Shown: piece by piece, positions 22,401 through 33,366 of the stretch
Numbering within the stretch: the stretch's first letter is position 1
How the letters are laid out: every line of letters begins with the position of its first letter
Origin: a phage
DNA length: 64,000 nucleotides
Reading direction: 5' to 3' (one strand)
Assembly (NCBI GenBank): GCA_024572335.1
Contig: GCA_024572335.1_3052.1
Notes under the pieces: generated by a model
What the model was told of the DNA's origin: nothing
The model's database searches: none
Seen by the model: only the letters and a program-made list of their open reading frames with translations
Translations under genes and position numbers: made by a program

Positions 22401-22679
22401 TTATTCTTTAAATCTAATCAATTTATTCATAGACTTTGAAACTTCTGCACGAACCTCATGTAAGTTTTTAAGCTGTTCAAGACGCTGCTCATAGTAAGCA
22501 ATTTCATCTTCTTCGAGACAGTCCTGTGAATCTTCTTTAAGATAACGTGCATAGTCCTGAAAAGCTTTACGGACTACTTCCTGAAAGTCATCAAGACTTT
22601 GAATTTTCTTAGGAGCGGCAGATACACGACGAGGTGCAGTATAATACTCATAACCAAACCCTGCACTTAATTGAGCCAT
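22401..22679 (-). CDS. hypothetical helical protein (92 aa from MAQLSAG)
   Basis: probable start at internal ATG abutting upstream ORF stop. Confidence 0.4.
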
Positions 22680-22981
22680 TAGTATTTTTCCTCTGGTTGG
22701 AACACTGCACGACAAGCCCACATACTGGCTTCTTTGAGTTTCGTTTTAGCAATAGTTAACTGATCGAGGCTTTCAGCATAATTCTTCGCGAGTTCATAGT
22801 CTTCACAGCTATTAAATGCTTCCCAAAATTCATCGTATAAAGCATCAAAGATAAGTCCTAAACGAACTTCAGCGTCTTTGATAGCATTCACTTTACCGAT
22901 TTTCTCTTCAGTATGCGGCTTATAACTTTTAATGTCTTCAATCATATTTGACTTCCTCACCAGTACATAAATCATATTCAA
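22679..22981 (-). CDS. hypothetical protein (88-100 aa)
   Basis: ORF; true start may be MIEDIK at 22945. Confidence 0.4.
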
Positions 22982-23159
22982 CTAAACGAATAGGTTCATG
23001 AATGCCATATCCTTGAACAGAAATTTCTGTCGTAGGATAAATTCCATCAATATCACCCATATTCCAGGCTTCGTTAAATTGCTGTTCGCCTGAATTACTA
23101 AACCACTCGGCGAAAGCATTTAGCACATCTTTAGAACCTTCAATAATTATCTTTGCCAT
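22938..23159 (-). CDS. hypothetical protein (73 aa)
   Basis: ORF, ATGA-type overlap with the GrcA-like gene. Confidence 0.4.
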   Translation of the reverse strand: MAKIIIEGSKDVLNAFAEWFSNSGEQQFNEAWNMGDIDGIYPTTEISVQGYGIHEPIRLVEYDLCTGEEVKYD

Positions 23160-23521
23160 TACAAACTCTCAGTAAAGGTACGAGCGATAACGTCGCGCTG
23201 CTGTTCCGGAGTCAGAGAGTTAAAGCGAACTGCATATCCGGATACACGGATGGTCAGCTGCGGATATTTTTCCGGATGCTTAACTGCATCTTCCAGAGTT
23301 TCGCGACGCAGAACGTTAACGTTCAGGTGTTGACCACCTTCAATTTTAACTGTAGGCTGTTGCTCAATTTCAATTTCACGGGCATGCAAACCGTAGAAAA
23401 TTTCTGGGTCTACAAAAGAGTCCTCTTTAAAGGTTTTGGAGACAATAATTCGTGCTTGAATACCATCTTCAAAATAAATAGTACCTTTATGTGTGCCTTC
23501 AAGAATTTGATATGCTTTCAT
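23159..23521 (-). CDS. autonomous glycyl radical cofactor (GrcA/YfiD-like)
   Basis: C-terminal ~60 aa [60 protein letters not shown] carries the RVSGY glycyl-radical signature, as in E. coli GrcA. Confidence 0.85.
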
Positions 23522-23528
23522 ATAAACC

Positions 23529-23855
23529 TCAATTAGAAAATAAATTTATCCAAGATTGTTCTTTAATTAAAAATGGCTCAGAATCATATGCCATTAAACT
23601 CTGTGTGATTAGTCCTTTAAAAGGCCCATCAATAAATTCCATGGTAAAATATGGAATTTTATTCATTAGCCGTGCATTAGGAGCAGTACATAAAACTCTG
23701 CATCCTTTGAATACGCCTTTTTGTAATTTGTATTGCTTAGGATAAAATTCGCTTAAAATGTTATTTTTTGCCAAAATTTCAAAATGATTCACCAATTTAT
23801 TTTTAATAGTTTTTGGCGAAAAATAAAGATATTCGAAAAGCTGAGTGTCTGTCAT
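23529..23855 (-). CDS. hypothetical protein (about 108 aa)
   Basis: probable start at MMTDTQ, abutting the upstream stop. Confidence 0.4.
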
Positions 23856-24394
23856 CATTGCATTCCAATCACAAAAAATTGAGGACGAGTAATACCACCA
23901 ATGCAACATTTACTATTACAGCAGTAGTGTACAGTGTCAATATGGACACTATAAATCTTATCCATATCAGGAGATTTGACAGGCTCATCAATTATATACA
24001 AAATTCGCGAAAGCGATAAACCTCTGAACTTGCTTCCTTTATTACCAATAAAACTGCGCACAGAATCAGTAAATAAACGAAAACGTATATCATCATTAGA
24101 ATAACGCGAAAATTCCTTTTTAATGTTATTTGCAGAAATTTTAGCGTAAGCTGAAGTATTAGAAAGAACAATAACTGTTCCGCCATCATACAGCCAATTA
24201 GCAGCAAAGTTAGTCACAGCAATTGATTTACCAGATTGACGTCCACCGTCTAGTCGAAGTGTGCAATACTGCTTAAATAATTCTTCAAATGGCGGGATAT
24301 ATTCGTTTTTACAAATTTCTTCTACTCTAGCATCAGAATGGTGTGTAAAAGCATTCATCAGGGATAGATAAGGACCAGTTAAAAATGTTCTCAT
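23855..24394 (-). CDS. stand-alone P-loop ATPase resembling the terminase large-subunit ATPase core
   Basis: Walker A LDGGRQSGKS and Walker B ILYIIDEP about 90 aa apart, compare gp17 in this window (SRQLGKT ... MIYIDECAF); ATG 24392-24394 (complement). Confidence 0.5.
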   Translation of the reverse strand: MRTFLTGPYLSLMNAFTHHSDARVEEICKNEYIPPFEELFKQYCTLRLDGGRQSGKSIAVTNFAANWLYDGGTVIVLSNTSAYAKISANNIKKEFSRYSNDDIRFRLFTDSVRSFIGNKGSKFRGLSLSRILYIIDEPVKSPDMDKIYSVHIDTVHYCCNSKCCIGGITRPQFFVIGMQ

Positions 24395-24535
24395 TTTATT
24401 CTCTCTAGGTTTGGGCCATTCCGTGGCGCATGAATTGTCCATTTCTGTATTTACCCATTACCGCACTTGGGCTCGACCTTATTACAGGTTGGCGGGAATC
24501 CCTCATAGAATCATGAGGTCCAGTTTGTTCCCATA

Positions 24536-25009
24536 TTATTTGAACGATTTAACGTACTGAATAGAACCCTTACTATTCACAAAGGCAATTTTACCATTTT
24601 TATTATACATGGTAGCAGTACGCTGATAACCATAGGTTTGTTTACCAGATTGATAACCAACTAATGCAAAATTATCTTCACCCATTTTATTCTGTTTAGC
24701 GCGAATGCGTTCATGACCATGTGCCATAAGAACCTTAGCATCACCAGTTGCAATGGATCGACGAGTTTTTTCATCTTCAACTGCATTAACAAAGTCGTCA
24801 AATGAATCAAATTTAGCATGAGATTTATTATACAATTTTCCATCTACTGCATAATTATATCCCTGTACATCCATCTCAACTTCTGTACCATCATCCAATA
24901 CAGCAGTAATTTTTTGACCTTTTTTAAATTTCAAAAGATCAGTAAAAGATTCAGCAATAATTTGAGAATTAATAGCTGCTTCAGTGATAAATTCTTGATA
25001 TGTTTTCAT
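24536..25009 (-). CDS. internal-protein-like head protein with capsid targeting sequence
   Basis: N-terminus MKTYQEFITE|A matches the T4 IP leader MKTYQEFIAE ending at a gp21 cleavage site; early promoter 25064-25093. Confidence 0.7.
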   Translation of the reverse strand: MKTYQEFITEAAINSQIIAESFTDLLKFKKGQKITAVLDDGTEVEMDVQGYNYAVDGKLYNKSHAKFDSFDDFVNAVEDEKTRRSIATGDAKVLMAHGHERIRAKQNKMGEDNFALVGYQSGKQTYGYQRTATMYNKNGKIAFVNSKGSIQYVKSFK

Positions 25010-25063
25010 GGGTTTCCTTTAAATATTTTAATTAGTAATTTGTCTCTTCAAGCAACTGTGAAT

Positions 25064-25093
25064 ATACTATCACAATTCTAGGAGAAAGTAAAC
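25064..25093 (-). promoter_or_regulatory. early promoter upstream of the IP-like gene
   Basis: GTTTAC (25088-25093) - 18 bp - TAGTAT (25064-25069). Confidence 0.5.
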
Positions 25094-32290: not shown

Positions 32291-32291
32291 T

Positions 32292-32477
32292 CTATTCACC
32301 TTTAGAAATTTTATCCATAACGATAGCAATTAAACCAATTAAAAATGCTACTACAAGTGAAAATACATTTTCTGCTGTAGTTAATAATCCGCATATAAAT
32401 CCAACAAACATTGAAAAACTAAAAGCAGAAGCAGAAATTGCAATAGCAACATTTCGAATTAATTCACAACGTTTCAT
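32292..32477 (-). CDS. small membrane protein (61 aa)
   Basis: GAGGAGAA SD; two hydrophobic helices; early promoter 32506-32535. Confidence 0.45.
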   Translation of the reverse strand: MKRCELIRNVAIAISASAFSFSMFVGFICGLLTTAENVFSLVVAFLIGLIAIVMDKISKGE

Positions 32478-32505
32478 TTTATTCTCCTCAGTAGTTGATA
32501 GGGTA

Positions 32506-32535
32506 ATAGTATCACAACTAAAACCCTATGTAAAC
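32506..32535 (-). promoter_or_regulatory. early promoter
   Basis: GTTTAC (32530-32535) - 18 bp - TACTAT (32506-32511). Confidence 0.55.
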
Positions 32536-32553
32536 AACTTTGTGAAAAATTTA

Positions 32554-32838
32554 TTACAAAAGATTTTTAGCAATAATTTTAAGCTGAGCTACTGAAATAT
32601 GCTTGGCTTTAAACAAAGCAGTTTCTTCAGCAGGGGAGATAACGATTGTAGCACCATCTTTCTTAGCGGACCATCCATCACCCAGGTAAACAGTACCTTT
32701 GACTTCTTCGCCATCAACCAGGCTAATCATCGGTTTACCTTCACGTCCTTTGTTTGCTTTAATAACTTCAGAAGTAAGGGTCGCTTCAGTCAAAGTAGAA
32801 GCGTTAGTGGTTGAAGTGAATTCTTGATAAGTTTTCAT
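32554..32838 (-). CDS. internal-protein-like head protein with capsid targeting sequence (ipI-locus position)
   Basis: N-terminus MKTYQEF...LTE|A; gene sits upstream of 57B as T4 ipI does; early promoter 32869-32898. Confidence 0.65.
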   Translation of the reverse strand: MKTYQEFTSTTNASTLTEATLTSEVIKANKGREGKPMISLVDGEEVKGTVYLGDGWSAKKDGATIVISPAEETALFKAKHISVAQLKIIAKNLL

Positions 32839-32868
32839 TTTATTTTCCTAATTAATTTTGATGAGGTA

Positions 32869-32898
32869 ATAGTATCACTACCTCATCAGCATGTAAAC
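32869..32898 (-). promoter_or_regulatory. early promoter of the ipI-locus gene, -10 in the loop of a 9-bp inverted repeat
   Basis: GTTTAC (32893-32898) - 18 bp - TACTAT (32869-32874); arms gatgaggta (32860-32868) / tacctcatc (32879-32887). Confidence 0.55.
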
Positions 32899-32910
32899 AA
32901 CTTTGTGAAA

Positions 32911-33366
32911 TTATTTTAAATCATCTGCCCAATCGAATTTAAGAGGCTCTTTGTATTCACGATCTAATACGACCGGAATTTGTACATCACCGCTAAATGA
33001 TAAGGGCCCAACATTATAAGACAATGTTATATGCGGTGTGTAATCATCAAAATCATGTGTAGCACCTAGTGCCCGCGCATACATGTGTCGACAGCGCAAA
33101 TATTCAGAATCTAGTACAAGTACAAGAGTAGATCCATCTTGTGTTTTCCATACTTCTAAATGTCCAGAAGAAGCTACTTCAAAACTTCCGCTTGATGGAA
33201 CATATGGAACATTTACTCTCGAATAACATATAGTCGAATGAATTTTTTCTCTAGGAACTGGATTAGGAACACGTAAAGAGCGCTGAAGTTCTTCCAGCGC
33301 ATCAAGTGTTAATTCTGAAAACTTAGCTGCTACATAAAGACCCGTTGAAAAGTCTTTAAATTCCAT
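32911..33366 (-). CDS. 57B: 57B protein, 2H-phosphoesterase-like (Acb1-type anti-CBASS nuclease candidate)
   Basis: 151 aa; two H-x-[ST]-x motifs (HSTI, HITL); position upstream of 57A as in T4. Confidence 0.7.

Follow-up and report, generated by a model that had tools for sequence, protein, structure and literature searches.

A T4-like phage interval with genes matching three countermeasures to host immune second messengers: Acb1, Acb2, and TadIV-1

The 64,000-nt stretch of phage DNA analyzed here (contig GCA_024572335.1_3052.1, referred to as the window) carries three genes of interest between positions 22401 and 33366. All three lie on the minus strand. The first, 57B (32911-33366; 151 aa), is assigned to Acb1, a 2H phosphoesterase acting on cyclic di- and trinucleotide signals. 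The second, vs.4 (22679-22945; 88 aa from an ATG, or 100 aa from a TTG at 22679-22981), is assigned to Acb2, a cyclic-dinucleotide sponge. The third, vs.3 (22401-22679; 92 aa from an ATG, or 106 aa from an upstream GTG), is assigned to TadIV-1, a sponge for N7-cADPR, the signal of type IV Thoeris. A third small open reading frame (ORF), vs.5 (22938-23159), adjoins the two sponge genes. These four ORFs, already listed in a preliminary description of the locus, are all found at these positions and on this strand. Very probably, the interval thus holds three characterized T4-like countermeasures to host immune second messengers. Identities and conserved residues were read directly from the sequence, and the activities given below are those expected from 93-99% identity to the T4 proteins used in experiments.

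The window is a T4-like (Tequatrovirus) genome, and the region shows 98.6% identity over 3.2 kb to NBEco003, AR1, RB14, and SHBML-50-1. Its gene order follows the T4 and RB14 annotation: vs, vs.1, regB, vs.3, vs.4, vs.5, vs.6, vs.7, and vs.8, continuing with e, nudE, e.2-e.8, the tRNAs, ipI, 57B, 57A, 1, and 3, all on the minus strand. On the basis of this regional identity and of a family match with E<1e-19 for every ORF, the small ORFs and 57B are taken as real genes and not chance ORFs. Within the block, vs.6, vs.5, vs.4, and vs.3 are translationally coupled via overlapping stop and start codons.

57B had been described beforehand as an Acb1-type enzyme with two H-x-[ST]-x motifs, and both statements hold. 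The protein scores 200.8 bits with the Pfam Acb1 model (PF23474; cutoff 27), the alignment spanning all 144 profile positions, and phmmer aligns it to the FBB1 Acb1 structure (PDB 7T26) with E=1.3e-61. It is identical to T4 Acb1 at 150 of 151 residues. The two HxT motifs are H43-S-T45-I (HSTI, 43-46) and H112-I-T114-L (HITL, 112-115), such that the catalytic tetrad H43, T45, H112, and T114 is intact and the catalytic histidines are present in the alignment. These residues correspond to H44, T46, H113, and T115 of T4 (T4 numbering +1); the window protein is one residue shorter at the annotated N-terminus. All ligand-contact residues are likewise kept, namely Y11, W73, F106, E140, and W146 (Y12, W74, F107, E141, and W147 in T4), and the C-terminal lid (145-152, T4 numbering) is present. 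The tetrad, the stacking aromatics, E141, and the lid are therefore all shared with the T4 enzyme, which Hobbs et al. 2022 purified by its activity (PMC9117128). Also shared is the position downstream of 57A with an overlapping stop and start.

As in T4, Acb1 would be a metal-independent 2H phosphoesterase whose lid closes over 3'3'-cGAMP, cUA, cAAA, or cAAG. Cleavage 3' of adenosine via the HxT/HxT tetrad would then destroy the signals of the cyclic-oligonucleotide-based antiphage signaling system (CBASS). The name currently attached to the gene points elsewhere: T4 57B is labeled "RNA ligase" in RefSeq, phrog_755 bears the same label, and the 2H fold is common to 2'-5' RNA ligases. However, the RefSeq and PHROGs label is older than the Acb1 biochemistry, and it is a dedicated Pfam Acb1 model that yields the high score given above. 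It is thus highly improbable that 57B is an RNA ligase or a generic LigT-type 2H enzyme as opposed to an anti-CBASS nuclease.

One of the three small ORFs had been proposed, by position and with no choice among them, as the counterpart of T4 Vs.4. The middle ORF, vs.4, is that gene. It matches the crystallized T4 Vs.4 (PDB 7UQ2) over its full length with a phmmer E=4.4e-52, the Pfam family Acb2_Tad1_hairpin (PF24729; cutoff 27) with 70 bits, and phrog_717 with E=1.1e-30, the last being the family that Jenson et al. took for Vs.4 homologues (PMC10097602). Identity to T4 Vs.4 is 82 of 88 residues (93%). The 88-aa form is preferred over the one beginning at the upstream TTG on three grounds: the ATG is preceded at 8 nt by a GAGGA Shine-Dalgarno sequence, an 8-nt overlap joins this start to the vs.5 stop (ATGATTGA), and the T4 and RB14 annotation uses the same start.

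Position alone would allow a flanking ORF, vs.3 or vs.5, to be the cyclic-dinucleotide sponge, and vs.3 is likewise small, helical, and assigned as a sponge. When all three small ORFs were compared with Acb2, however, only the middle one aligned; hhalign probabilities to the Acb2 profile are 0.7% for vs.3 and 0.4% for vs.5, and neither matches PF24729. According to published work (PMC13243611), TadIV-1, the family of vs.3, binds neither CBASS signals nor those of type I Thoeris, and vs.5 is predicted to be mixed alpha/beta with no sponge-like match. Together with the near identity of the middle ORF to the crystallized protein, this leaves a flanking ORF an extremely improbable candidate.

The functional residues of Acb2 are known from T4. 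Base stacking is provided by Y8 and F82, polar contacts come from H11, K23, and R79, and the hexamer interface is formed by L29, A66, A73, and A77, as well as F33 (Jenson et al. 2023, PMC10097602). The substitutions T12I, S74N, and A77I each inactivate T4 Vs.4, and Y8A lowers cGAMP binding more than 5-fold (PMC10097602). Phages escaping the Panoptes defense carry E26K, C78W, F82C, or P84Q in acb2 (PMC12657218, Supplementary Table 2). Unchanged in the window protein are Y8, H11, T12, K23, E26, L29, F33, L60, A66, A73, S74, A77, C78, R79, F82, and P84. Conservation thus extends to all residues probed by experiment for binding, hexamer formation, or escape, with the dinucleotide pocket (Tyr8, Phe82, His11, Lys23, Arg79, and Ser74) and the hexamer interface (L29, F33, A66, A73, and A77) complete. 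For Acb2, see also Huiting et al. 2023.

The window and T4 proteins share the length of 88 aa, the slot between vs.5 and vs.3, the pocket and interface residues, and D61/T68. They differ by six substitutions. Five of these, L44F, D45N, N46S, C50Y, and F52L, are located in the hairpin loop, a segment that is freely variable across the family, and are common to other field phages. The sixth, G7S, is private to the window and is considered below. Acb2 of phage PaMx33 (PDB 8H2J, 8IXZ) belongs to the same Pfam family, and its Gly-Tyr motif, a lysine (K26, equivalent to K23), and a C-terminal Arg/Pro align with the window protein, although phmmer similarity is borderline (E=0.44); PaMx33 Acb2 is 24% identical to T4-Acb2 (PMC10312549). 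In PaMx33, cyclic trinucleotides have a second pocket of their own, created by R67 and T74 and a kinked helix. The residue pair in the window protein is D61/T68, as in T4-Acb2, to which dinucleotides bind but cA3 does not (PMC10312549). Accordingly, the window Acb2 is expected not to bind cyclic trinucleotides. The second pocket defines a subtype of Acb2 and is not a requirement for family membership. By analogy with the T4 protein, Acb2 would be a two-helix-hairpin protein assembling into a hexamer with three inter-protomer pockets. In each pocket, Tyr8 and Phe82 would provide base stacking, with the phosphates and riboses held by His11, Lys23, and Arg79, so that cyclic dinucleotides are sequestered without being degraded.

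The assignment of vs.3 goes beyond the preliminary description. Its product matches PDB 9WIW over its full length (phmmer E=2.3e-38), the TadIV-1 of phage UPEC07 (Chen et al. 2026, PMC13243611). The same study identified T4 Vs.3 as TadIV-1 by phage mating, deletion, complementation, and biochemistry, and characterized it as a dimeric sponge specific for N7-cADPR. Long homologues (~90 aa) are active and short ones (~70 aa) are inactive, and the T4 protein needs R17, R18, and K24 (PMC13243611). The window protein is of the long type, with 92 aa and a full N-terminus including the flexible loop, and keeps R17, R18, and K24. It is identical to T4 Vs.3 at 89 of 92 positions and to RB14 Vs.3 at all 92. 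The three differences from T4 are V21A, N38K, and T64E, of which V21A lies in the pocket-forming N-terminal loop and is an allele common to RB14. The vs.3 start overlaps the vs.4 stop as TAATG. In the proposed mechanism, TadIV-1 would act as a dimer whose flexible N-terminal loop (R17, R18, K24) sequesters N7-cADPR. Two of the three small ORFs are thus predicted sponges for different signals.

Several observations weigh against the view that all three proteins work as their T4 counterparts do. The sole substitution in 57B relative to T4, L145F (T4 numbering), lies inside the C-terminal lid. The exact window protein is found on 23 contigs, named phages among them, and L145F is therefore a circulating allele. 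For TadIV-1, the published binding mode was derived from models and mutagenesis and not from a structure with bound ligand (PMC13243611). The remaining points concern G7S in Acb2. The affected codon (22925-22927, minus strand) reads AGT (Ser) where relatives have GGT (Gly), and it immediately precedes the ligand-stacking Tyr8. Glycine occupies position 7 in 119 of 119 cluster representatives and in 168 of 170 family sequences. The latter were gathered by a profile search, since a single-sequence search of 1.84 billion representatives gave 11 matches, too few for family statistics. That a glycine precedes the stacking tyrosine is an invariance observed in the sequences and is not among the published defining features of the family; Ser7 departs from it. 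Gly-Tyr is found even in the 24%-identical PaMx33 Acb2. Under a family hidden Markov model built without the window sequence, no residue of the N-terminal segment is better conserved than Gly7, and G7S lowers the score by 4.5 bits.

The two non-glycine sequences among the 170 are the window protein itself and a vs.8-like::Acb2-like fusion that likewise lacks Tyr8. This fusion (236 aa) lies at 1885-2595 of a 4.4-kb metagenomic T4-like contig carrying e, denV, two small ORFs, the fusion, regB, a vs.1-like gene, and vs. It joins a vs.8-like P-loop domain to an Acb2-like C-terminus in which "SDH" replaces the conserved "KGY". It is known from this single short contig and is possibly a frameshift artifact.

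None of the phage collections scanned contained the serine allele. A 37-nt probe centered on the serine codon had 0 matches in 50,697 GenBank phage records, while its glycine version had 110. A degenerate Ser7 pattern was found in none of IMG/VR, GTDB genomes, and JGI metagenomes, although the IMG/VR denominator is just 12 glycine matches. Ser7 recurs in the Logan assembly of run SRR20718338 and in two protein records at NCBI, all of which may stem from one sample. The codon is the sole nucleotide difference over the 267 nt of vs.4 from the closest alleles, those of NBEco003 and SHBML-50-1. The adjacent vs.5 is identical to theirs, although the surrounding operon differs by 1.5-1.8%. Given a background divergence of about 1.5-1.8% from the closest relatives, one private single-nucleotide polymorphism in vs.4 is unremarkable in number. 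An effect of the substitution on the overlapping vs.5 frame was considered and rejected, as the overlap spans 22938-22945 and the codon lies at 22925-22927. No mention of a role for Gly7 was found in the Acb2 literature examined.

It might be argued that the acb2 gene is present but that G7S makes its product a weakened or non-functional sponge. Either the substitution could be a slightly deleterious private mutation, or it could be a loss of function selected by a host system that senses the removal of decoy nucleotides. Panoptes is one such system: T4 escapers from it are acb2 loss-of-function mutants (PMC12657218), and the missense changes listed above are of the kind that it selects. Besides the near invariance of Gly7 and the absence of Ser7 from the collections scanned, the adjacency to Tyr8, whose replacement by alanine is so costly for cGAMP binding, and the status of G7S as the only nucleotide change from the nearest alleles speak for such a weakening. 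However, a glycine-to-serine change is small, missense changes at G7 are absent from the published Acb2 screens and escaper sets, and vs.4 retains its reading frame, its start codon, and every residue with a known function. Most likely, G7S leaves Acb2 a working or mildly weakened sponge; a material impairment of ligand binding is the less likely outcome, and a weakened or non-functional sponge is likewise a minority expectation. Considerably less probable is an adaptive role, in which G7S would retune the dinucleotide pocket, e.g., toward less affinity for decoys such as 2',3'-c-di-AMP that trigger Panoptes-type defenses. Under this improbable reading, enough binding of 3'3'-cGAMP would remain to block CBASS.

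The third small ORF, vs.5 (22938-23159, minus strand; 73 aa), is coupled between vs.6 and vs.4 and is no recognizable sponge. It has no match in Pfam and no sequence match in PDB, and its PHROG family (phrog_1986) is without an assigned function. A homologue search gave 5 relatives, all close orthologues. The AlphaFold2 model is of low confidence (pLDDT 66) and mixed alpha/beta, and Foldseek finds no significant match for it in PDB or BFVD besides its own orthologues. The annotated T4 vs.5 (58 aa; L002 3382-3558) is a frameshifted form of the 73-aa gene seen in the window and in RB14, and its C-terminus matches an out-of-frame window ORF at 22982-23119 on the minus strand. The reference T4 vs.5 may reflect a frameshift in the laboratory strain or a different allele.

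Directly downstream of the small ORFs lies regB (21880-22341), identified by the Pfam family REGB_T4 with 228 bits. A putative sigma-70-type early promoter for regB (22369-22397, minus strand) directly follows the vs.3 stop. It consists of TTTACT, a 17-nt spacer, and TATAAT with an upstream TG, assigned by consensus match only, and is followed by an AGGAG ribosome-binding site and then regB. This promoter marks the downstream end of the coupled block from vs.8 to vs.3. A promoter and terminator scan of 21200-25200 showed no enrichment over shuffled sequences (17 found against 14.9 expected), and only the candidate regB promoter was convincing by eye.

At the head of the block that holds both sponges lies vs.8 (23855-24442, minus strand). 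It has a Walker A-like GGRQSGKS and a DEP motif, and its weak PHROG match (E=9e-6) is to the ATPase region of terminase large subunits. These features suggest a P-loop NTPase that is as yet uncharacterized. Other genes of the interval encode a GrcA-like protein (vs.6), Ip4 (DUF7412), lysozyme (e), NudE, IpI (PF11634), and 57A; those remaining belong to PHROG families without an assigned function. No further known signal-degrading or sponge family was found among the remaining interval genes, and the T4 Sequestin gene Y16Q was not detected in the window by a probe or a motif search. None of the six proteins tested has an NCBIfam model, so that absence there carries no information.

The interval also differs from T4 in gene content (24443-25009 and 30694-31522). 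The genes denV, ipII, ipIII, and segB are missing, and Ip4 (DUF7412) is found in their stead. The interval carries ten tRNAs compared with eight in T4, the extra ones being Asn-GTT and Tyr-GTA; ARAGORN predicts 10 of 10, and 9 are recovered by Rfam at the gathering score. A 157-aa ORF at 29466-29939 on the minus strand (phrog_2280) begins with MKSYTQFLNEA, which resembles the capsid-targeting leader of T4 internal proteins as seen in Ip4 (24536-25009; MKTYQEFITEA) and IpI (32554-32838; MKTYQEFTS). This ORF may encode an additional injected internal protein. As to the origin of the sequence, a Logan contig assembled from run SRR20718338 matches window positions 19679-23198 at 100% identity, and NCBI records assigned to Escherichia coli list these proteins on a contig of 167,626 nt. 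The genome of a strictly lytic T4-like phage is therefore present within bacterial isolate sequencing data, as contamination or as a carrier state.

The locus represents known biology; what it adds to the preliminary description is the TadIV-1 assignment and the private substitution at an invariant Acb2 glycine. The gain for annotation is that most database records name these genes "hypothetical protein", "RNA ligase", or "endoribonuclease". The G7S allele provides a testable natural variant at an invariant position of Acb2. If the adaptive reading were true, it would represent a natural phage sponge that escapes "anti-anti-defense" by tuning its specificity and not by gene loss. Sponges for unrelated signals, CBASS dinucleotides and the N7-cADPR of type IV Thoeris, are encoded by neighboring genes of a single translationally coupled block, and this arrangement makes vs.5, vs.7, and vs.8 reasonable candidates for more counter-defense functions.

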